Assembly: GCA_965237905.1 (NCBI GenBank)
Contig: OZ250172.1
Location: forward strand, 2,048,001 to 2,112,000
Length of the DNA: 64,000 nucleotides
Direction of reading: 5' to 3'
Source: Nitrospinaceae bacterium
GTDB lineage: Bacteria; Nitrospinota; Nitrospinia; Nitrospinales; Nitrospinaceae
This document shows, piece by piece, positions 1 to 11,398 of this stretch (the stretch's first letter is position 1; each line of letters begins with the position of its first letter). Both the position numbers and the translations under genes were made by a program. The notes beneath the pieces are model-generated. The model saw only the letters and a program-made list of their open reading frames with translations, was not told the origin of the DNA and did not search any database.

Positions 1-1130
1 ATCTCGAACGCTACCGGCGGCATGTCCCCTTCATGGACTTGTTCGGCAAAACCCATTATCTGCAAGCAGCGCTCAAATTAAAAGGCACTGCAGCCATTGC
101 GAAGGAAACCACCGAAATGATCCTGGCCCACTCCAGCCAGACCGGCGGCAAGTTCATGTTCAATGAAACGCTCGATGACAGTTATTCGCGCATTCTCGCG
201 ACACCGCTGCGCACTAACTGCGCCATTCTGTCCACTTGGACGCAGGGCATGAACCGTGCGGAGGTGACGTCCCTGATCAAAGATATTCCATTCAAAATGG
301 TGCGCGCCATTACCCAGACGCGCGGCAACCGCGACCATTGGGAAAACACGCAGGAGAACATGTTCTGCATGAACGCTCTGGTCGATTACAATAAAGCCTA
401 CGAAAATACCCAGCCACGGATGGTCGTCAAGGCGATGATGGATAGGAAGACTCTGGGCAAGGTGAAGTTTAACGACCGGCGCGATAAGCCGACCACGTTC
501 GAGCGGCCTATCGGGAAAAGCGATCCCGGACGCAAAACCAAAATGGTGATCGAGAAAAAAGGGCCGGGCCGCATGTACTATTCAACCCGCGTCAGCTACA
601 CACCGCTGGAAGAGCACGCCAACCGTGTCAACGCCGGCATCGAAATCCGCAAGGAGTACAGTGTCGAGCGTGACAAAAAATGGACTTTGTTGAAAAACCG
701 GTCGGAAATCCGGCGCGGCGAACTGGTGCGCGTCGATATTTTTGTATCGATCCCCACCGCGCGCAACTTCGTGGTGGTGGACGATCCCGTGCCCGGCGGA
801 CTGGAACCCGTTAATCGCGATCTCGCCACCGCCTCCATCGTTGACGCCGACAAAGGAAATTTCAAAGCCGCCGGCAGTTCCTGGTGGTTCCAGTATCCCG
901 ACTGGCATTACTTCAATGCCTCGCGCTGGAGTTTCTACCATAAGGAACTGCGCCACGACTCGGTGCGGTTTTATTCGGACTACCTCCCGGCGGGCAACTA
1001 TGTGTTGTCTTACACGGCGCAAGCGATCGCACCCGGCAACTTCGCGAAGATGCCCGTACACGCTGAAGAGATGTACGATCCCGACGTCTTCGGCAAAGGC
1101 GTCCCCTCGAAACTGGTCGTGAAGGATTAA
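1..1130 (+). CDS. Bacterial alpha-2-macroglobulin family protein, C-terminal part (5' end outside window)
   Basis: Frame is open to the window edge. C-terminal A2M motifs: WENTQEN, RGELVRVDI, VVVDDPVPGGLEPVN, ELRHDSVRFY, PVHAEEMYDP. Followed after 4 nt by pbpC, as in the YfhM-PbpC pair. Confidence 0.9.
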   Translation, partial: LERYRRHVPFMDLFGKTHYLQAALKLKGTAAIAKETTEMILAHSSQTGGKFMFNETLDDSYSRILATPLRTNCAILSTWTQGMNRAEVTSLIKDIPFKMVRAITQTRGNRDHWENTQENMFCMNALVDYNKAYENTQPRMVVKAMMDRKTLGKVKFNDRRDKPTTFERPIGKSDPGRKTKMVIEKKGPGRMYYSTRVSYTPLEEHANRVNAGIEIRKEYSVERDKKWTLLKNRSEIRRGELVRVDIFVSIPTARNFVVVDDPVPGGLEPVNRDLATASIVDADKGNFKAAGSSWWFQYPDWHYFNASRWSFYHKELRHDSVRFYSDYLPAGNYVLSYTAQAIAPGNFAKMPVHAEEMYDPDVFGKGVPSKLVVKD

Positions 1131-1134
1131 GAAC

Positions 1135-3333
1135 GTGCTGAACGGGATTTCAAAAAGAGAGCGTCTCTGGTCCGCCTTCGCTGGAGGCGGCATGATAGTT
1201 GGCGTGGTGTTCACTTTTGTGACGCTGATGAATCTTTCGTCCACCTCAAGGATATTGCAATCCATTCATGTCAAGGGCGAGCAGGTGCGTGTTCTGGATC
1301 GCCACGGCGCACCTCTTTTGGTAAGCGCTCACACGGACTGGAATCTGCACGATACGGTGCTCCTGCACAGTGTTCCCGAGTTTCTTCAGATGGCGTTTGT
1401 GCTCTCGGAGGACAAACGGTTTTACGAACATGACGGTATCGACTGGCGTGCACGATTTCATGCGCTCTGGCAAAACGTGAAAGCGATGAAGGCCGTGCGC
1501 GGCGCAAGCACACTCACCGAGCAGGTGGTACGCATCAACCATCCCCGTTCGCGCACGGTGTGGTCGCGCTGGCTCGAAGGTTGGGAAGCGCAGGACCTCG
1601 AACATCATGCCAGTAAGGCGGATATTTTGGAGTTCTATCTCAACCAGGTGCCTTACGCCTCCAACAGGCGGGGACTCATCCAGGCGGCGCGGCATTATTT
1701 CAACCGCGATCTCGATACGCTCAATAAAAAAGAAATGCTCGCCCTCGTGGTGCTGGTGCGGGCGCCGTCACGTTTCGATCTGTACCGGGATACACGGAGG
1801 GTGGAAACATCCATCCACCGTCTGGCCCGGGCGCTGGTGGACAGGGGAATACTTTCCAAAGTTGAGCACGAGAATATCCTGAGTCATCGGCTCAAACTCG
1901 AAAAGCCGAAATCTCGCGCGCAAGCCTTCCACTTTGCGCAGCAGGTAAGGAATAAACTCGTACCGGGATACCCTCATAGCAAAATTCGCAGTACCTTGGA
2001 TGCCGACCTGCAAAACACCGTGCAATCTTTGCTGGACCGCCGCCTCGAGGATTTGAAATCCCGGAAAGTGCGTAACGGCGCCGTGCTGGTGGTGAATCAT
2101 AACACGCGTGAAATCCATGCCTGGACCGTGGCGGGTCAAATGAACGAAGACATGCCGGGAAGTTTTATCGATGCCGTCACCACCCCGCGCCAACCGGGCT
2201 CGTCCATGAAACCCTTTTTGTACGCGTTGGCGCTGGAGAGCGGGTGGACTGCCGCGACGGAAATCGACGACTCGCCGCTGGTACAATCCGTCGGCCATGG
2301 CCTGCACAATTACCGCAATTACAGCAGAACCTTTTACGGTCCGGTGTCCCTGCGCAAGGCGCTGGGCAATTCGCTCAACATCCCCGCTGTCAAAACCGCG
2401 CAGTTCGTCGGCACCGATTCCTATCTGAAATTTCTGCGCACATTGGGATTCCGCTCACTCAACCGACACCCCGATTTTTACGGCGACGGACTGGCCCTCG
2501 GTAACGGTGAGGTGACGCTGCTCGAATTGGTGCAGGGCTACACCACACTGGCTAACCGGGGCACCTTCGCTCCCCTTAAAACATTGCTGGACGATCCCTC
2601 GTCCCACGCTTCCCGGCAAGTCCTGTCGCCGGAGTCCGCATCGTTGATCGCTCATATTTTGTCTGATCCCGAGGCGCGGCGGCTGGAGTTTGGGGGCGGC
2701 AGTGTGCTCAACCTGCCCGTGCAGACCGTCGTGAAAACCGGGACGTCGACGGATTACCACGATGCCTGGGCGGTCGGGTTCAACGACCGTTATGTGGTCG
2801 GCGTGTGGATGGGCAACCTCGACCAACGGGCGATGGACAAGGTGACCGGGTCGACCGGACCCGGCCTGCTTCTGCGGGGCGTGTTTGCGGAACTCAACCG
2901 CTACCGCGAAACTCATCCCCTGTACCTGAGTCCTCGGCTTGTGCAAAAAGAAGTCTGTTCAGTTGCCACCGACTCTCAACCCTGCCGACCCTATTCCGAA
3001 TGGTTCCTGCCTGGTACGGAACCGGAAGCGGCTGACCGTAATAAAACCCTTGGAGCCGACCCCAAGTTGCAATGGGTGCAACCGACGCCTGGTTTGCAGT
3101 TGGCAATGGATCCACGCATCCCGGATGCTCACGAAGCGTTCGAGTTCGTGATTGGAGGGGTGAAAGAAACCGAGCAGGTGGAATGGATGCTGAACGGAAA
3201 ACCGGTCGCCCGCACCCGTGGAGGCCGCTACCTCTGGCCCGTCGAGCGCGGTACGCATCAACTTCACGCTACAGTTCTGACCGACAGCCCCCAGCCCTTA
3301 ACCCTGTCAAAAGTTCGCTTCAACGTAAAATAA
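1135..3333 (+). CDS. pbpC: Penicillin-binding protein 1C (transglycosylase/transpeptidase)
   Basis: N-terminal TM segment; GT51 motifs EDKRFYEHDG, GASTLTEQ, ILEFYLN; transpeptidase motifs GSSMKPF, SLN, KTGTS; PBP1C-type C-terminal domain; next to A2M. Confidence 0.93.
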   Translation: MLNGISKRERLWSAFAGGGMIVGVVFTFVTLMNLSSTSRILQSIHVKGEQVRVLDRHGAPLLVSAHTDWNLHDTVLLHSVPEFLQMAFVLSEDKRFYEHDGIDWRARFHALWQNVKAMKAVRGASTLTEQVVRINHPRSRTVWSRWLEGWEAQDLEHHASKADILEFYLNQVPYASNRRGLIQAARHYFNRDLDTLNKKEMLALVVLVRAPSRFDLYRDTRRVETSIHRLARALVDRGILSKVEHENILSHRLKLEKPKSRAQAFHFAQQVRNKLVPGYPHSKIRSTLDADLQNTVQSLLDRRLEDLKSRKVRNGAVLVVNHNTREIHAWTVAGQMNEDMPGSFIDAVTTPRQPGSSMKPFLYALALESGWTAATEIDDSPLVQSVGHGLHNYRNYSRTFYGPVSLRKALGNSLNIPAVKTAQFVGTDSYLKFLRTLGFRSLNRHPDFYGDGLALGNGEVTLLELVQGYTTLANRGTFAPLKTLLDDPSSHASRQVLSPESASLIAHILSDPEARRLEFGGGSVLNLPVQTVVKTGTSTDYHDAWAVGFNDRYVVGVWMGNLDQRAMDKVTGSTGPGLLLRGVFAELNRYRETHPLYLSPRLVQKEVCSVATDSQPCRPYSEWFLPGTEPEAADRNKTLGADPKLQWVQPTPGLQLAMDPRIPDAHEAFEFVIGGVKETEQVEWMLNGKPVARTRGGRYLWPVERGTHQLHATVLTDSPQPLTLSKVRFNVK

Positions 3334-3399
3334 AAAATACCCTGCGGCAAAAACTCTCTGTTTTTACCTGTTTGTGTTTTAAAGGTTTACGTTTTCGGG

Positions 3400-3735
3400 T
3401 GAAGAAGGAGGCCCAGAGTTCCTTGTAAATGAACCGATCGGGCGATATCCTGATTTGTAAATCAAAGTGAAGCCGGATGGATTCATACCGAGGGAGAAGA
3501 CTTGGCCGTGAAATATCCCTCGATCTGGTTCACCGAAGCGGCGGGGCAGGACCCGTGGAGCATCATTGTTTCTTATCCGTTGGGGGCAACCCTCGTTTTA
3601 TTTATAGCATTGATTGCCAAGCCGCAACCGGAACTGGCTACAATGCCCAGCCGGCCGCAAGCGGGCATGCCGCCACGAACTCAGGTCCAGCCGAGACAAC
3701 GGCTCCGGCCTCAACCTACAAATGTGGGAAAATAA
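3400..3735 (+). pseudogene. Possible frameshifted remnant of a membrane sensor (Cache-domain end plus TM helix), or a 77-aa small membrane ORF (3502-3735)
   Basis: Two frames join with one extra T near 3454 to read ...EPIGRYPDFVNQSEAGWIHTEGEDLAVKYPSIW...DPWSIIVSYPLG-[TM]. The W-x6-P just before a hydrophobic stretch resembles the end of dCache domains. Confidence 0.3.
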
Positions 3736-3777
3736 CGCGTGCTATTCGTAGTGGAGTGACTCCTGATGAAAGAATCC

Positions 3778-3825
3778 TCCACTGAGGATAACTTCGTGCG
3801 GGTTCGATTCCCGCCCCTCGCACCA
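3778..3825 (+). tRNA. 3' half of a class II tRNA (Leu-type); att-like remnant, not an intact gene
   Basis: TCCAC, variable arm TGAGG-ATAA-CTTCG, T-arm GCGGG-TTCGATT-CCCGC, acceptor strand CCCTCGC, then A-CCA. No complementary 5' acceptor strand, D-arm or 7-nt anticodon loop upstream. Confidence 0.8.
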
Positions 3826-4141
3826 TCCCCAAGCGCATTATCGAGCAGTCTGAATTTCAGTTGCCGCTACTGTTTTAACCTCACTCAATACCTCCTACCC
3901 GGATAGCCATAAATTCGACTGCCTGGTAGCCCTGATAATCGCCAATGTAGAGGGTAACCCCAAGTAATTAAAGGAGTTCTGATAATAGAATTATTGAATA
4001 ACTTTATAGAAAAGAGGTCCTTATTGTTTTGAAAGACCATATTTTTAGGCTATATATAGAGGTAACCTGCCCATGAAGAGGATTTGTTGAGTGAGGGATT
4101 GGCCTAGAAGAAAGGAGGCGGCCAGAATTTGCCGGGGGGGC

Positions 4142-4169
4142 TTGACAGTAGCTAAATTTGTCGGATAAT
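4142..4169 (+). promoter_or_regulatory. Candidate sigma70 promoter for the three-gene module
   Basis: TTGACA-N16-GATAAT about 200 nt upstream of 4375. Confidence 0.35.
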
Positions 4170-4374
4170 TACGGTTTTCCAATAAAAAAAGTATTGTTTT
4201 GGCACATTTTATGTGAAAAATCATATGAAATAAGAACTTCCGCGAATTTTATGTTGTGATTTCGGTTGACCAATGCGAGCATATAATGATATGTAATACT
4301 ACACTTTATAGACATTTATGTATCATTCTAATACATCTCGCTAATGAATTAACATTTTTATGGCGATATGAAAT

Positions 4375-4770
4375 TTGAATGCCGAAGACGGAAATAAGCT
4401 CCTTGTTGATTTTGTAGAAGCTTGCAAGGACGATAATCAGGAAATAAGCCTGAACTCCCGAATTTGTGGGGGGTCGTCCGGAGCTTCTAAGAAATTTTTA
4501 AATTTAGACACAGAGGAAGAAGTAATTCGCTTTATTGGCAATGGTGGCTTGGAGAAGCCTTTATTCCAAAAAACTGAGCCTTTTAGATATGCCCCAGCCA
4601 ATGAACAACCGTGTTTAGCGTATTCCTATCTTTTTGAGTCAGGAAGTGTTAAGGGATACATATCTATAGCATATCTAGCAAAAAAGAAAGTTTGGAGATT
4701 AAAATCATTTAAAGAGCATGACCAAAAAATGCACATTAAAGCTAAAAAAGGACCAGAAAAATTACTTTAA
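4375..4770 (+). CDS. Putative MqsR/RelE-superfamily toxin-like protein
   Basis: 131 aa with TTG start. The C-terminal beta-rich segment YSYLF..KGYISIAY..WRLKSFK resembles the MqsR ending (..SFK). Lies directly upstream of an MqsA-like gene. Confidence 0.55.
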   Translation: MNAEDGNKLLVDFVEACKDDNQEISLNSRICGGSSGASKKFLNLDTEEEVIRFIGNGGLEKPLFQKTEPFRYAPANEQPCLAYSYLFESGSVKGYISIAYLAKKKVWRLKSFKEHDQKMHIKAKKGPEKLL

Positions 4771-4787
4771 AAACCAAGGGTTATAAT

Positions 4788-5483
4788 ATGAAAAAACCAT
4801 TGTTTTGCCCCGAGTGTGATTCCGATAAGATTAGGGTTGATTGGGAAACTGATCAGATATCATTGCCGGGTGGGGACAAATTTGATTATGAAAAGGAAAT
4901 TCACATTTGTGAAAATTGTGGTGAAAGGGGAGTCTTTTCGAGAAGTATCATTAAAGAAAATCATGAAAGATATTTGGCCGCACTTCAAGAAAATAACAAT
5001 CGATCTTTAGAATCGATCACGGATTATCTTTCTCAACATAATTTGAAAATGGCATTTGTTGAGCGATCCTTAAGATTGCCACAAAGAACTGTTTCAAGGT
5101 GGAAGTCAAAGGGGGTTTCCGCTTCTGGTATGGCATTAATGAGAATCATAAAGACTTTCCCTTGGATTTTGTGCGTGGCAGAAAAAGATTTTGATGAAAG
5201 ATTTTCTAAAGAAGAGCTTGTTCGTCAGGCCTTTCCTATTATTCAAGAGACCATTCGTAACCCTGATGAAATTAATTCCGTTAATACATCTCAGAATAAA
5301 CATTTGAAGGCGGCATGGTTTACACCGCAGGGTGCATTCACTATAACTGCATCACTTGTTGTGGATAGAGAAATAATTGCAATGGAAAACCCGAATGCAA
5401 TGCCTAAGCGAACAATCGCAGGGGAAATGCCACATGCAACGGAAATAGAATTTGAGATTCTTGAGGGAGATGTCAAAATATGA
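4788..5483 (+). CDS. MqsA-like antitoxin (Zn-ribbon plus Cro/XRE HTH) with long C-terminal extension
   Basis: CPEC...CENCGE zinc ribbon; HTH AFVERSLRLPQRTVSRWK; helix ALMRIIKTFP; then about 100 extra residues. Confidence 0.75.
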   Translation: MKKPLFCPECDSDKIRVDWETDQISLPGGDKFDYEKEIHICENCGERGVFSRSIIKENHERYLAALQENNNRSLESITDYLSQHNLKMAFVERSLRLPQRTVSRWKSKGVSASGMALMRIIKTFPWILCVAEKDFDERFSKEELVRQAFPIIQETIRNPDEINSVNTSQNKHLKAAWFTPQGAFTITASLVVDREIIAMENPNAMPKRTIAGEMPHATEIEFEILEGDVKI

Positions 5484-5932
5484 AATTTAGCGATATCATT
5501 GTTTGTGATGATATTAGACGCGAGATAGGGAATAAGCGAACCCTTGTAGGCGTATATTCAAATCAATTAATATTTTATACAGATCCGGAACAACCCAATT
5601 GGCCAACCCCAAAACAATTAGGTATTTATTTTAATATTATTTTGGAGGATGGTGATCCTGCTGGCTTGGATGGTTTTAAGGGGAGTGTTTCCGTTAAACC
5701 TAGTTCAAATAAAAAGACTGAGGAAGTCAAAATTGCAGACTTTCAAGGTGGACTATCTAGCAATATGGGGAAGATTGTGACAATTGATCTGTTGTCTCCT
5801 CTCCTTATCCCTTTCCCAGGCACCCTAATTTTAAGTTTTGAAGTTCAAAGAGAGGGAAAAAAAATCTCCAGTTTTAGAAAAGAGATAATTGAAATAAGTG
5901 AAGCTCCATCAAATCAACCTGCCAAAGTCTAA
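5480..5932 (+). CDS. DUF6941-like beta-sandwich protein
   Basis: N-terminal IIVCDDIRREIGNKRTLVGVY and C-terminal PFPGTL patterns as recalled for DUF6941. ATGA overlap with the antitoxin; GAGGGAG RBS. Confidence 0.7.
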   Translation: MKFSDIIVCDDIRREIGNKRTLVGVYSNQLIFYTDPEQPNWPTPKQLGIYFNIILEDGDPAGLDGFKGSVSVKPSSNKKTEEVKIADFQGGLSSNMGKIVTIDLLSPLLIPFPGTLILSFEVQREGKKISSFRKEIIEISEAPSNQPAKV

Positions 5933-5984
5933 TACTTCCTAACATCTAAAAAGTCTTTCGAGTCGACTGAACACCTTAGGAAAT

Positions 5985-6017
5985 AAAAAAGGCGGTTCCC
6001 GTTGGGGGAAACCGCCT
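5985..6017 (-). terminator. Rho-independent terminator after the csp gene (possibly bidirectional)
   Basis: Minus strand AGGCGGTTTCCC-CCAAC-GGGAACCGCC followed by T6. Confidence 0.8.
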
Positions 6018-6139
6018 GCTTTTAAATAAACATTTCCTATGTTAATCCGGCGGGCTATTTAACCTGGCCGGGATTAAGGCTGGTACCCAGTGTTGGATCA
6101 AACACCCAACACTCCAACCGGAGCGGGAAAAGGATTCAA

Positions 6140-6340
6140 CTACTTGGGCATCACGTTGTGGGCTTGGGGTCCTTTATCCCCAACGTTCATTTCATATTCA
6201 ACGGACTGGCCCTGCTTCAACGTCTTGAACCCTTCCTGCTGAATCTGAGAGAAATGAACAAAAACATCTTTGCCTTCATCCGTCTCGATAAAACCATACC
6301 CTTTGCTATTGTTGAACCATTTCACTTTTCCCTCTGCCAT
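6140..6340 (-). CDS. Cold-shock protein (CspA family)
   Basis: [31 protein letters not shown] contains the RNP1/RNP2 motifs; GGGGAG RBS before ATG at 6340. Confidence 0.97.
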
Positions 6341-6673
6341 GGCGAAATCTCCCCCAAAATGTAAATTGAAAGCACATCCTAACACAAGTCGGTTTTTTTC
6401 CCAGTGGAGACCCGACAAAAAAGGGTGGATTTTTTGCCGGCTCCTAATATCCGAATTTCAATATCACTATTACATTGAATTTAATGGGGTTATTCGTTTT
6501 TTGGGGGTGGCGAAGTGGGTTAAAATTGCGCATTGTCAGGACCTTTGTGTTCTCAACTCAGGGTTGCAGGACGACTCCCAATCCGAAAATTGATGCATCC
6601 GCCATCTGTCATTTCCTTATATAATTTGTAGGTAATATCATAAGCGCATCCATCTTTGGATATAGGAGTTCGT

Positions 6674-7321
6674 ATGACCCTCCAACTGGGTTCTCAACAC
6701 TATTCCCCGCAACGCATTTTCTGTATCGGCAGGAATTATGCGGAGCATGTCAAAGAGCTGGGCGGCCGTGTCCCCGGCCAACCGGTCGTATTTATGAAAC
6801 CGGTGTCTTGCTTGGTGTCTCCCGGACAGACGATTCCGATGCCGACGCATGGCAACAACCTGCACCACGAGGTGGAAGTGGTCGTGTTGATCGGGACACC
6901 GGGAAAGAATATTCCCGAGTCCGACGCCGCATCCCATATTGCAGGGCTGACACTGGGTCTGGATTTGACCCTGCGGGATGTGCAGTCGGACCTGAAAAAG
7001 AAAGGCTGGCCGTGGGAAATTTCCAAAGCCTTCGACCAGAGTGCCCCTCTCGGAACATTGACGCCCTATAGCGACACCCTTCCACTTGATGACATTCCGT
7101 TTCAGTGTTCGGTCAATGGTGCCGTGCGCCAAACCGGCAACAGTTTCGAGATGATGTTTCCGATTCCTCATTTGATCCATTACTTGAGCGGTATCTGGGA
7201 ACTCAAGGAAGGGGATTTGATATTCACCGGCACACCGTCGGGAGTCGGGCCTTTACAACCGGGTGACCGGGTTACCCTGCACAGCGACCTGTTAGGAACT
7301 TTCGAATGGTCTCTGGCCTGA
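6674..7321 (+). CDS. Fumarylacetoacetate hydrolase family protein
   Basis: IFCIGRNYAEH, FMKP, HHEVE, DLTLRDVQ, KAFD, GDLIFTGTPSGVG; AGGAG RBS before ATG 6674. Confidence 0.95.
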   Translation: MTLQLGSQHYSPQRIFCIGRNYAEHVKELGGRVPGQPVVFMKPVSCLVSPGQTIPMPTHGNNLHHEVEVVVLIGTPGKNIPESDAASHIAGLTLGLDLTLRDVQSDLKKKGWPWEISKAFDQSAPLGTLTPYSDTLPLDDIPFQCSVNGAVRQTGNSFEMMFPIPHLIHYLSGIWELKEGDLIFTGTPSGVGPLQPGDRVTLHSDLLGTFEWSLA

Positions 7322-7557
7322 AATCCGGTACCGATATCGGGTTCTCCAGGAATTTTTTATGATTTGATGAAGCGCGCCTGAATCGTCCTAACTCCCCTGA
7401 ACTCATTCGTTTTCGCCATGACCCCCGGCCCGGGAGAAACGACACCTCCATTTAATATCCCTGAGGGTAAAACACCTTAAAAATATGTGTTATTATAAAT
7501 TACAACTACATTAAATGTTAATAAATGAATCTTCAAAGGTACTGCTTAGGAGCCGCT

Positions 7558-9814: not shown

Positions 9815-10681
9815 ATGGTGATGCTTAAACGCTTACTGTTGGCTGTATTCGTCAGCATAATGGGTATAGGGATTGTGTTTGCGTCGGGATGCAGTCGCAC
9901 GCAGATGGCCTACAACCATTTCGATTGGTTCCTGCTCAAGCGAATCGATCATTTTTTTACTTTAACGTCCTCTCAGGAAACCTACCTTGAACAGAAAATA
10001 ACGGTTCTCCATACCTGGCACCGGCAACAGGAACTTCCCCTGTTGGTGGATGCTCTTCGCGAATTACAAACCCGTTTCCAGGATGGGTTGAGCCGCGAAG
10101 ATATTGATTGGATCGATGACACCCAATCCGGTTTCTGGAGAAGGTTTGTCGAGCACGGTGTGCCCGATTTCGCCCACTTTCTGGCCACGGTCCAGCCGGA
10201 ACAAGTGGCCCACCTTCAGCAATCCATGGCCGAACGTAACGATTTTCTCGTCGAGCAAACCCAAATGACCGACAAAGAGCTGAAAGCAGACATTTTGGAA
10301 TGGCTGTATGGCCTTCTGGAGGACTGGTACGGGGAATTGACTGACGACCAGCGTCGGCAGATCGCGGCGTGGGTTCAGCCCGATGCGGAATGGATTGGCA
10401 TCCGGCTGGAGCACCGTAACGCATTTCAAAAGGATTTTGCGCAATTCTTGAAGAATCAACCTCAGGAGGGAGCTGTTTACCGGTGGCTGATGGAACGGGT
10501 GATCCAGCCCGAAACCCGTTGGGACCCCGATTTCAAACAACGGCTGGACGCAAAATGGGAAGAATGGAAAGATGTCTTTTACCGGGCCGATGCCCTCATG
10601 CAACCGCATCAAAGACAACACGCTCTGGACCGTCTGGGAGATTACCTGGAAGATTTTGAAGATTTAATGCAGGAAGCCTAA
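9815..10681 (+). CDS. DUF6279-like lipoprotein
   Basis: Lipobox ASGC; YNHFDW..L...Q...L......HTWHRQQELP and WYGELTDDQR patterns. Confidence 0.75.
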   Translation: MVMLKRLLLAVFVSIMGIGIVFASGCSRTQMAYNHFDWFLLKRIDHFFTLTSSQETYLEQKITVLHTWHRQQELPLLVDALRELQTRFQDGLSREDIDWIDDTQSGFWRRFVEHGVPDFAHFLATVQPEQVAHLQQSMAERNDFLVEQTQMTDKELKADILEWLYGLLEDWYGELTDDQRRQIAAWVQPDAEWIGIRLEHRNAFQKDFAQFLKNQPQEGAVYRWLMERVIQPETRWDPDFKQRLDAKWEEWKDVFYRADALMQPHQRQHALDRLGDYLEDFEDLMQEA

Positions 10682-11015
10682 AACTTTTCCTAACCCGGCA
10701 TTCGCAAGTGGGTGCCAGGACCAATCCAGCCCTCCAATACCCCCAATTTAACCCCTGTCCTATTAATATCCGAATTACAATAATTCTCAAAAACTGTCAA
10801 AAATCGTCACCTGGCTCCATATTGATTACAATTCTGGGTCATTTCTCCTAAAGATGCGAAATTGAATAATTTGTGGAGCAAATATATGGATTTTCATATA
10901 ACTATTTGTTTCGTTTGACCAAGATTTAGTACAGTTACACTAACTGAAAATTTTTGAATTTTTTTAACAAGCTGTTAACAAAGGGTTTAAGCGAATATCA
11001 AACATTTTGTAAAAA

Positions 11016-11031
11016 TGGCACAAGGATTGCT
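11016..11031 (+). promoter_or_regulatory. Sigma54 (-24/-12) promoter
   Basis: TGGCAC-AAGGA-TTGCT matches TGGCAC-N5-TTGCW exactly, in an AT-rich intergenic region upstream of 11180. Confidence 0.8.
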
Positions 11032-11058
11032 TTATTAATAACATCCATTAAGTAAGAA

Positions 11059-11135
11059 AATTACCGGGGTTTCGAGAGAACCCTTCTTTACTTCCCCCCC
11101 AACTTTTAGAGGGGTTTTCTCGAACCGGTTTAATT
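11059..11135 (+). ncRNA. Long 5'-leader hairpin with C-rich loop (candidate regulatory RNA element)
   Basis: 17-bp stem 11071-11087/11108-11124 with two G.U pairs, a 5-bp extension, and a 20-nt loop TTACTTCCCCCCCAACTTTT. Confidence 0.55.
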
Positions 11136-11179
11136 GCAGCGTACTGTGAAATTAAACGAGCAACCTGAGGAGGTAAAGC

Positions 11180-11398
11180 ATGTTTTACCAAGTTCGCATC
11201 AAAAGACCAGATGGTACTGTGAAGAAAGTAGTTTCCGAACAGAAATTAAACCGTAGGCATTGGGAAAATTTTCAGAAGAGCGAAGAGGAAATCGGATTGG
11301 TAACGGCTTCCAAACAACAGGTTCCGACCTGGGTCAAGCAGAAGCTGGATGTCGAGTATCCGGAAACCTATTCGGATATGTTGAATTATAACGGTTGA
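11180..11398 (+). CDS. Small hypothetical protein (72 aa)
   Basis: Strong RBS GAGGAGGT; lies between a sigma54 promoter and a terminator. Confidence 0.8.
   Translation: MFYQVRIKRPDGTVKKVVSEQKLNRRHWENFQKSEEEIGLVTASKQQVPTWVKQKLDVEYPETYSDMLNYNG

Follow-up and report, generated by a model that had tools for sequence, protein, structure and literature searches.

Toxin-antitoxin-chaperone (TAC) systems combine a type II toxin-antitoxin (TA) pair, usually of the HigBA, HicAB, or MqsRA family, with a chaperone resembling SecB within a single operon, and their antitoxins carry mutually dissimilar C-terminal chaperone-addiction (ChAD) extensions, as described in PMC5105189. MqsRAC and other TACs are reported as phage defenses in a 2024 preprint (bioRxiv 10.1101/2024.02.24.581848). 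Here we describe a three-gene operon of a Nitrospinaceae bacterium (GCA_965237905.1), located within the 64,000 nucleotides (nt) at positions 2,048,001–2,112,000 of the forward strand of contig OZ250172.1 (hereafter the window, whose numbering is used below). All three genes lie on the + strand and encode a predicted MqsR-like toxin (gene 1, 4375–4770, 131 amino acids (aa), TTG start), a putative MqsA-like antitoxin with a long tail (gene 2, 4788–5483, 231 aa), and a predicted divergent beta-sandwich protein of the DUF6941 family (gene 3, 5480–5932, 150 aa). To our knowledge, tripartite TA systems in which the antitoxin is under chaperone control are known only with SecB-like proteins; sensing of phage infection by such systems has recently been reported. 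The best explanation of the locus as a whole, to which we give a probability of roughly 0.5, would be an acquired TA operon with the DUF6941 protein as a TAC-like, tail-binding third component.

The order of toxin, antitoxin, and third gene is the same as in the TAC operons of PMC5105189 and the preprint, including HigBA1-SecB(TA) of Mycobacterium tuberculosis, MqsRA-SecB(TA) of Vibrio cholerae, and MqsRAC of Escherichia coli. TAC antitoxins resemble that of the operon described here in bearing a terminal addition, dissimilar from one system to the next, and both kinds of operon are patchily distributed, mobile modules. The predicted TA pair is toxin-first and MqsRA-like, as in one of the usual TAC families. 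The third protein, in contrast, is SecB-like in TACs and is here a predicted DUF6941 all-beta, immunoglobulin (Ig)-like sandwich that may bind the tail; in addition, the predicted toxin and antitoxin are too divergent for the curated MqsR and MqsA models. The operon would fall outside TAC as defined because its third protein appears structurally unrelated to SecB, and it plausibly works like a TAC.

A second close system is the two-gene E. coli MqsR/MqsA (b3022/b3021; PDB 3HI2). The toxin gene comes first in both, the gene 1 product is colinear with MqsR (including an SFKE motif) and has MqsR as its best structure match, and the gene 2 product shares with MqsA a CxxC...CxxC ribbon followed by a helix-turn-helix (HTH) region. 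The E. coli proteins differ in being shorter, with 98 aa in MqsR against 131 in gene 1, which has an insertion around residues 28–41, and 131 aa in MqsA against 231 in gene 2; the operon also has a third gene, and neither protein reaches a hidden Markov model match above cut-off.

Conservation of the Three-Gene Operon

With gene 2 or gene 3 as the search seed, the trio was recovered in the same order at 15 distinct loci besides that of the window, in at least four phyla. These loci comprise two from metagenomes (L001, with L002 as an identical copy, and L003), four in other genomes of the phylum of the window (G101, G036, G043, and G011), four in records of an unclassified bacterium, Bacteroidota, Syntrophus, and Anaeromyxobacter (L023, L024, L025, and L027), and five in further genomes from the phylum of the Anaeromyxobacter record (L088–L091 and L093). 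Two of the 15 are truncated at contig edges, G036 within gene 1 and G101 within gene 3. Because the same genes occur in the same order at so many other distinct loci, the three-gene arrangement is beyond chance. Among the 120 genomes of the phylum of the window, gene 2 matches and strong gene 3 matches are found in the same five genomes, representing four of 30 genera, and the distribution is patchy and transfer-like. A scan of the genome contigs with the gene 2 alignment yielded no relative. At L003, an open reading frame (ORF) recognized by eye as tyrosine-recombinase-like lies 1.4 kb downstream.

In the window, genes 1 and 2 are separated by 17 nt (4771–4787), and genes 2 and 3 overlap by ATGA at 5480–5483. 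An earlier reading of the window, made from the sequence alone (the sequence-only reading), had described three tightly packed, co-oriented genes as a candidate new tripartite module; the packing is confirmed by the ORF listing and the sequence, and the recurrence of the trio in other genomes by the 15 further loci. The suggestion that the module is uncataloged likewise holds in the sources consulted. PADLOC-DB 2.0.0 has no model that matches any of the three proteins beyond chance: the one match to gene 2, CARF_HEPN, is at chance level (E 0.017), and none of 28 gene 3 relatives has a match. No mention of DUF6941 or PF22091, and no function or TA link for the family, was found in the literature searched, which comprised main texts from outside subscription journals; among papers listed for TA systems with three parts or a third component, all systems were known ones. 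The trio is likely a widespread new TAC-like variant.

Genes 1 and 2 might also form an ordinary two-gene MqsRA-type TA system with gene 3 as an unrelated passenger. DUF6941 genes occur in many other contexts, and in the genome G602 (L087:1113–2688) genes 1 and 2, the latter encoding a long-tailed antitoxin of 244 aa, precede an unrelated third gene, whose 141-aa product has an internal repeat and no Pfam match; this locus counts against the TAC-like explanation, and the third position behind the gene 1/gene 2 pair may be swappable. Against a passenger stand the finding that, of 17 distinct loci with a gene 1/gene 2 pair, 16 have gene 3 next in line, in no fewer than four phyla and often with overlapping stop and start codons, the restriction of both families to exactly the same five of 120 genomes, and the independent HicAB and HTH_3 pairs that carry DUF6941 in the same position (see below). 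We regard a passenger gene as very improbable and consider it highly probable that the trio is a genuine TA-type module of which gene 3 is a functional part.

Gene 1 as a Likely MqsR-like Toxin

A profile of 11 gene 1 sequences aligned by hhalign with an MqsR profile, built from E. coli MqsR and nine relatives drawn from genomes, over 97 colinear columns from end to end (score 21.2, E 0.0049); the alignment covers MqsR residues 1–97, including the SFKE at the C-terminus of MqsR. None of 200 column shuffles reached this score (mean 10.2, standard deviation 2.0, maximum 19.4). We graded this remote-homology support as modest, and the comparison of the gene 1 family profile with the single E. coli MqsR sequence was not significant (hhalign E 0.24). 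When the 1000 best Foldseek chains for an AlphaFold2 (AF2) model of gene 1 were rescored by VIA, E. coli MqsR (3hi2_D) ranked first with Z 8.2 and a root-mean-square deviation of 2.9 over 88 of 91 residues; the runner-up chain had Z 5.2.

All 10 homologs of gene 1 lie just upstream of gene 2 relatives, and the 11-sequence alignment contains the invariant residues Y85, F87, G94, W107, and K110-S111-F112. Because homologs recur in the same position with invariant residues, the sequences argue that gene 1 is a real gene, and it starts with TTG across the Nitrospinota loci. Its product is absent from a collection of 5.8 billion protein clusters, and because even the copy of the window is missing there, gene callers seem to overlook this toxin family systematically. 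The catalytic residues of MqsR (K56, Q68, Y81, and K96) align with K66, A82, Y95, and K113 of gene 1, of which only Y95 and K/H113 are kept in the family.

Several results speak against a toxin of this type. Gene 1 has no match in Pfam (E ≤ 1), NCBIfam, or PADLOC, and the Pfam model MqsR_toxin (PF15723) matches neither gene 1 nor any of its 10 homologs at E ≤ 1. Searched against the whole genome of the window, PF15723 gave nothing at E ≤ 10, but the same search was also silent on a control E. coli genome and is hence insensitive. No match in PDB was obtained by phmmer, a profile search gave chance rows only, and the ESM Atlas holds no matching cluster (best score 0.76). The AF2 model, computed from three sequences, is weak, with a predicted local distance difference test (pLDDT) score of 57.7, and Foldseek itself returned no significant match for it, with RelE and HigB2 near the top and MqsR at rank 47 (E 0.7). 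The missing curated toxin model and the weak structure model would suit an operon that is not a TA system at all, in which gene 2 is a zinc-ribbon/HTH transcription factor and genes 1 and 3 encode non-toxic accessory proteins. This explanation is improbable in our view, given that gene 1 aligns with MqsR and matches the MqsR fold, and that the toxin-first order, small protein sizes, patchy distribution, and placement in an insertion are typical of TA modules. Gene 1 likely encodes a divergent MqsR-like toxin, and we infer that it would be toxic and act as an RNase.

Gene 2 as a Putative MqsA-like Antitoxin with a Variable Tail

The gene 2 product is matched by TIGR03830, a model of the MqsA family, over residues 7–124 with E 9.5e-8. 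The zinc-ribbon cysteines C7, C10, C41, and C44 are invariant in 12 homologs. In hhalign comparison with an MqsA profile (E. coli MqsA and eight relatives), the score was 40.4 (probability 83%, E 8.9e-6), far from the 12.8 ± 2.4 of 100 column shuffles, whose maximum was 21.4. Residues 6–129 align colinearly with E. coli MqsA 2–128, and 102 residues remain beyond. By sequence comparison gene 2 is MqsA-like. The TIGR03830 score of 31.9 bits, under the curated cut-off of 61.8, has to be set against this assignment, and PF15731 is not listed for the protein at E ≤ 1.

The protein consists of the zinc ribbon, an HTH region reaching to about residue 129, a conserved helix-like stretch to about 150, and a variable tail from about 150 to 231 (nt ~5235–5480). 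Each of 17 gene 2 homologs is extended at the C-terminus by about 100 residues. Recurrent segments of alternating hydrophobic residues, which appear strand-like on inspection of the pattern rather than by tool prediction, are found in the tails of these homologs, one of them at the extreme C-terminus. Past residue ~150, 40–100 residues show no sequence conservation among the homologs, a point against the TAC-like explanation.

Gene 3 as a Predicted DUF6941 Beta-Sandwich Protein

Gene 3 is connected to DUF6941 through its relatives. A profile of six close gene 3 relatives retrieved 760 representatives out of 1.84 billion at a threshold of E ≤ 1e-3, of which 181 also passed E ≤ 1e-10, and 92 of 139 aligned relatives match the Pfam family DUF6941 (PF22091; function unknown). 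By hhalign, gene 3 aligned with five Pfam-positive DUF6941 members with a probability of 98.7% (E 2e-16) over the N-terminal 32 columns, which contain the hallmark motif. A neighboring cluster in the ESM Atlas is named DUF6941 (score 0.94), and 23% of its members carry the family. Gene 3 is like PF22091 members in its size, its predicted all-beta fold, and the presence of the hallmark motif at the N-terminus, and profile comparison indicates that gene 3 is a divergent member of the family. What stands against this assignment is that gene 3 itself has no direct family match, including none to PF22091 at E ≤ 1 (family threshold 27 bits), and that a PF22091 search of its own genome misses the locus.

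The AF2 model of gene 3, based on a deep alignment, is of high confidence (pLDDT 94.9), all-beta, and without helices. Its PDB neighbors by Foldseek and VIA include UNC119, RhoGDI, PDE6delta, the Wzt CBD, GH2 Ig domains, Vps26/arrestin, and the Pycsar AGS-C domain, all generic Ig-like matches with TM scores of 0.4–0.47 and Z up to 8.6, a range that the tool calls common. No SecB family match was found for gene 3 in Pfam or NCBIfam. A SecB-like fold was also considered for the protein and rejected: the lists of structural matches, in which a distant similarity may go unreported, contain no such fold, and the model has no helices.

Uncharacterized phage proteins of 134–142 aa (e.g., from Anoxybacillus phage A403) are closer to the gene 3 fold than any solved structure, with TM scores up to 0.70 and E 4e-6 in BFVD. 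When viral contigs were scanned with gene 3, a single weak match to the N-terminal part came up.

The protein identities put forward in the sequence-only reading are all upheld by these comparisons. The MqsR-like toxin fold of gene 1 is supported by the profile-profile alignment and the VIA fold match, the latter on a predicted model of low confidence. For gene 2, the CxxC/CxxC ribbon, the HTH, and about 100 aa past the end of MqsA agree with the invariant cysteines, the hhalign result, and the 102 extra residues. That gene 3 is a DUF6941-like beta-sandwich and not SecB is in line with the PF22091 matches of its relatives, hhalign, AF2, and the Foldseek and VIA results.

DUF6941 Genes behind Other TA Pairs

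DUF6941 genes also occur behind TA pairs of other families, in samples that were seeded with gene 3-like queries and are not an unbiased census. Among 18 genome-contig loci with gene 3 relatives, six are trios, two have HicA and HicB, three have an unknown protein with an HTH_3 protein, one has a similar layout, and six are without TA genes. At the two HicAB loci (L026 and L028), HicA (PF07927) and HicB (PF05534) lie directly upstream of DUF6941, and the HicB proteins, at 156–159 aa, extend about 50 residues past the HicB domain. The unknown protein and HTH_3 protein precede DUF6941 at L029, L031, and L032, and L030 has the layout of L031 by BLASTP similarity.

A sample of 400 genomes from the class of G120 (Gammaproteobacteria) contained PF22091 matches in five genomes; at L050 and L053, an unknown protein of 130–135 aa and an HTH_3 protein are encoded upstream of DUF6941, and L049 has no upstream sequence. 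A sample of 401 genomes from the phylum of G122 (Syntrophus) contained 14 DUF6941 loci in 13 genomes. One of these is a trio at the same place as L025, and L058 and L059 have HicA and HicB. L064 has a HicB-like gene and a HicA-like remnant upstream of DUF6941, and L067 an unknown protein and an HTH_3 protein. The first genes of L050, L053, and L067 have no family model match at E ≤ 1e-3 and look RelE/ParE-like by a motif.

Other layouts in the Syntrophus-phylum sample involve proteins of no recognized family. A recurring three-gene layout ending in DUF6941 (L060:298–1902 and L061:1168–2953) encodes a first protein of 230–262 aa with an N-terminal Cys-rich segment and a second of 178–190 aa with a Ser/Thr/Ala-rich tail; BLASTP relates the first genes of both loci to each other (E 3.7e-41), and neither upstream protein has a Pfam match. 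At L055:407–1953 and L057:1453–3075, whose DUF6941-like matches are among the strongest not belonging to a trio, DUF6941 follows a conserved 354-aa protein without a Pfam match, the copies being 90% identical. At L062:1441–3264, a Cpn60/GroEL gene is followed on its own strand by a DUF6941-like gene, 163 nt downstream, which is a weak hint of a protein-folding function. The remaining loci of this sample show nothing suggestive.

The recurrence of DUF6941 behind HicAB and HTH_3 pairs makes the TAC parallel stronger. MqsRA-like and HicAB pairs are common to DUF6941 loci and TACs, and the HTH_3 pairs possibly correspond to HigBA, so that two of the three TAC families named in PMC5105189 are shared outright and the third possibly. 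We put forward tentatively, at somewhat below even odds, that DUF6941 is a second, SecB-independent class of third component, recruited independently in many phyla by unrelated toxin-first TA families, each via an appended antitoxin segment. With the same reserve, these families would include MqsRA-like, HicAB, and RelE/HigB-like pairs with Xre antitoxins, and possibly others. Two observations pull against the TAC-like explanation: the extra segment of the HTH_3 proteins at L050, L053, and L067 is N-terminal rather than C-terminal, and DUF6941 is without a recognizable TA pair at six of the 18 loci and at about half of L050–L067.

Proposed Function of the Third Component

In the proposed mechanism, gene 1 would encode an MqsR-type mRNA interferase, which the gene 2 product would neutralize via its zinc-ribbon domain while repressing the operon via its HTH. 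The tail of gene 2, with two or three strand-like segments, would render the antitoxin dependent on gene 3, whose product may bind the tail and stabilize the antitoxin, possibly by adding tail strands to its own sandwich. The toxin would then be released once gene 3 is lost or titrated, for example in phage infection or when the element disappears. The specific role of gene 3 as a tail-binding stabilizer is proposed by analogy with TACs, and we hold this part with less than even confidence.

Across 139 gene 3 relatives, the motif C-D-D-x-R-x-E-x-x-x-K (C9, D10, D11, R13, E15, and K19) is nearly invariant, and this conserved polar motif is no harder to reconcile with a specific ligand or catalytic site than with a passive chaperone, a point that tells against tail binding. 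The motif resembles a defined binding or active site despite the unrelated antitoxins, and gene 3 may be a functional third component of another kind, namely a sensor or regulator that binds a small ligand, a phage protein, the toxin, or a protease or its adaptor and switches the TA pair on or off. Ligand-binding sandwiches (UNC119, RhoGDI, and PDE6delta) and the Ig-like AGS-C domain of the Pycsar cyclase are among the weak-score fold neighbors, and many DUF6941 genes stand without a TA pair, both of which would suit a sensor. The structural matches are nevertheless generic in the score range given above and nothing points to a ligand, while the extra segments of DUF6941-adjacent antitoxins parallel those of TAC antitoxins as described in PMC5105189. 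We consider a sensor or regulator less likely than not, and it is the main alternative to the tail-binding stabilizer.

If gene 3 is a TAC-like third component, DUF6941, which comprises hundreds of representative clusters, would gain its first functional context, and the holding of an antitoxin by a dedicated helper would have evolved more than once. DUF6941 would then be a convergent counterpart of TAC chaperone addiction and a candidate phage-sensing module. The DUF6941 operons provide a compact set for assays of neutralization, tail dependence, and phage defense.

Genomic Context of the Operon

The operon lies in an AT-rich inserted block at approximately 3846–5957, as delimited by GC content and comparison with congeners. 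GC content is 0.335–0.385 in windows spanning 4001–6000, against 0.52–0.62 upstream. The left edge of the block is marked by a 3' remnant of a tRNA-Leu(TAA) gene (3783–3845, + strand) that consists of the T-arm, the 3' strand of the acceptor, and CCA. A 25-mer of this remnant (3801–3825) repeats without a mismatch the 3' end of an intact tRNA-Leu(TAA) gene (G000:2042061–2042147) that lies 9.7 kb upstream in this genome of 3.09 Mb, and BLASTN against congeners widens the tRNA-Leu similarity to 3783–3845. Rfam matches only the T-arm of the remnant, and ARAGORN calls no tRNA gene in the window. The T-arm (3798–3814) was also considered as part of a transfer-messenger RNA (tmRNA) and rejected, as the tmRNA of the genome lies elsewhere and the remnant matches tRNA-Leu. 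The ORF listing contains no integrase or transposase in the AT-rich block. An AT-rich block beside a tRNA 3' remnant and without a mobility gene, as the sequence-only reading had it, is what the GC profile, the tRNA-Leu identity, and the ORF listing show.

The block is missing from the orthologous site in three congeners. In G030 and G036, sequence corresponding to position ~3739 of the window is joined straight to ~5982, and in G035 a tRNA-Leu 3' copy matching 3800–3845 is joined to 5958; at the corresponding place G033 carries different sequence, about 740 nt long. The right flank (6030–7330), with cold-shock and FAH genes, is kept in congeners. Because congeners join the flanks without the block, the sequence from ~3846 to ~5957 is strain-specific cargo at a tRNA-Leu-linked variable site, and these comparisons indicate that the operon was horizontally acquired.

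Putative regulatory elements near the operon are consensus matches only. A promoter-like site, TTGACA-16-GATAAT (4142–4169, + strand), agrees with the consensus at 11 of 12 positions and is a candidate operon promoter, a consensus match in a region where five such sites were found against 7.3 expected and there is thus no excess. Two imperfect inverted repeats (4175–4187/4207–4219 and 4282–4296/4316–4330), both between the promoter-like site and gene 1, are candidate operators from their position alone. Downstream, a GC-rich hairpin (5990–6017) flanked by T runs, with an A run ahead of the stem and a T run behind it, closes the block and is a predicted bidirectional terminator. The terminator scan calls it on the – strand, and it is likely common to the operon and the convergent cold-shock gene (6140–6418, – strand). 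A look for RNA data over 4100–6000 found none.

The intact tRNA-Leu(TAA) gene and its 3' remnant form direct repeats 9.7 kb apart (window 1–3845; G000:2042061–2051825), and the interval between them, including a PBP1C-like gene at 1135–3333, may be a second island. In congeners, tRNA-Leu lies only ~0.75–1.3 kb from the cold-shock gene flank. A second AT-rich dip is present at 10600–11200, where GC content falls to 0.35–0.375 within a region of 0.48–0.55.

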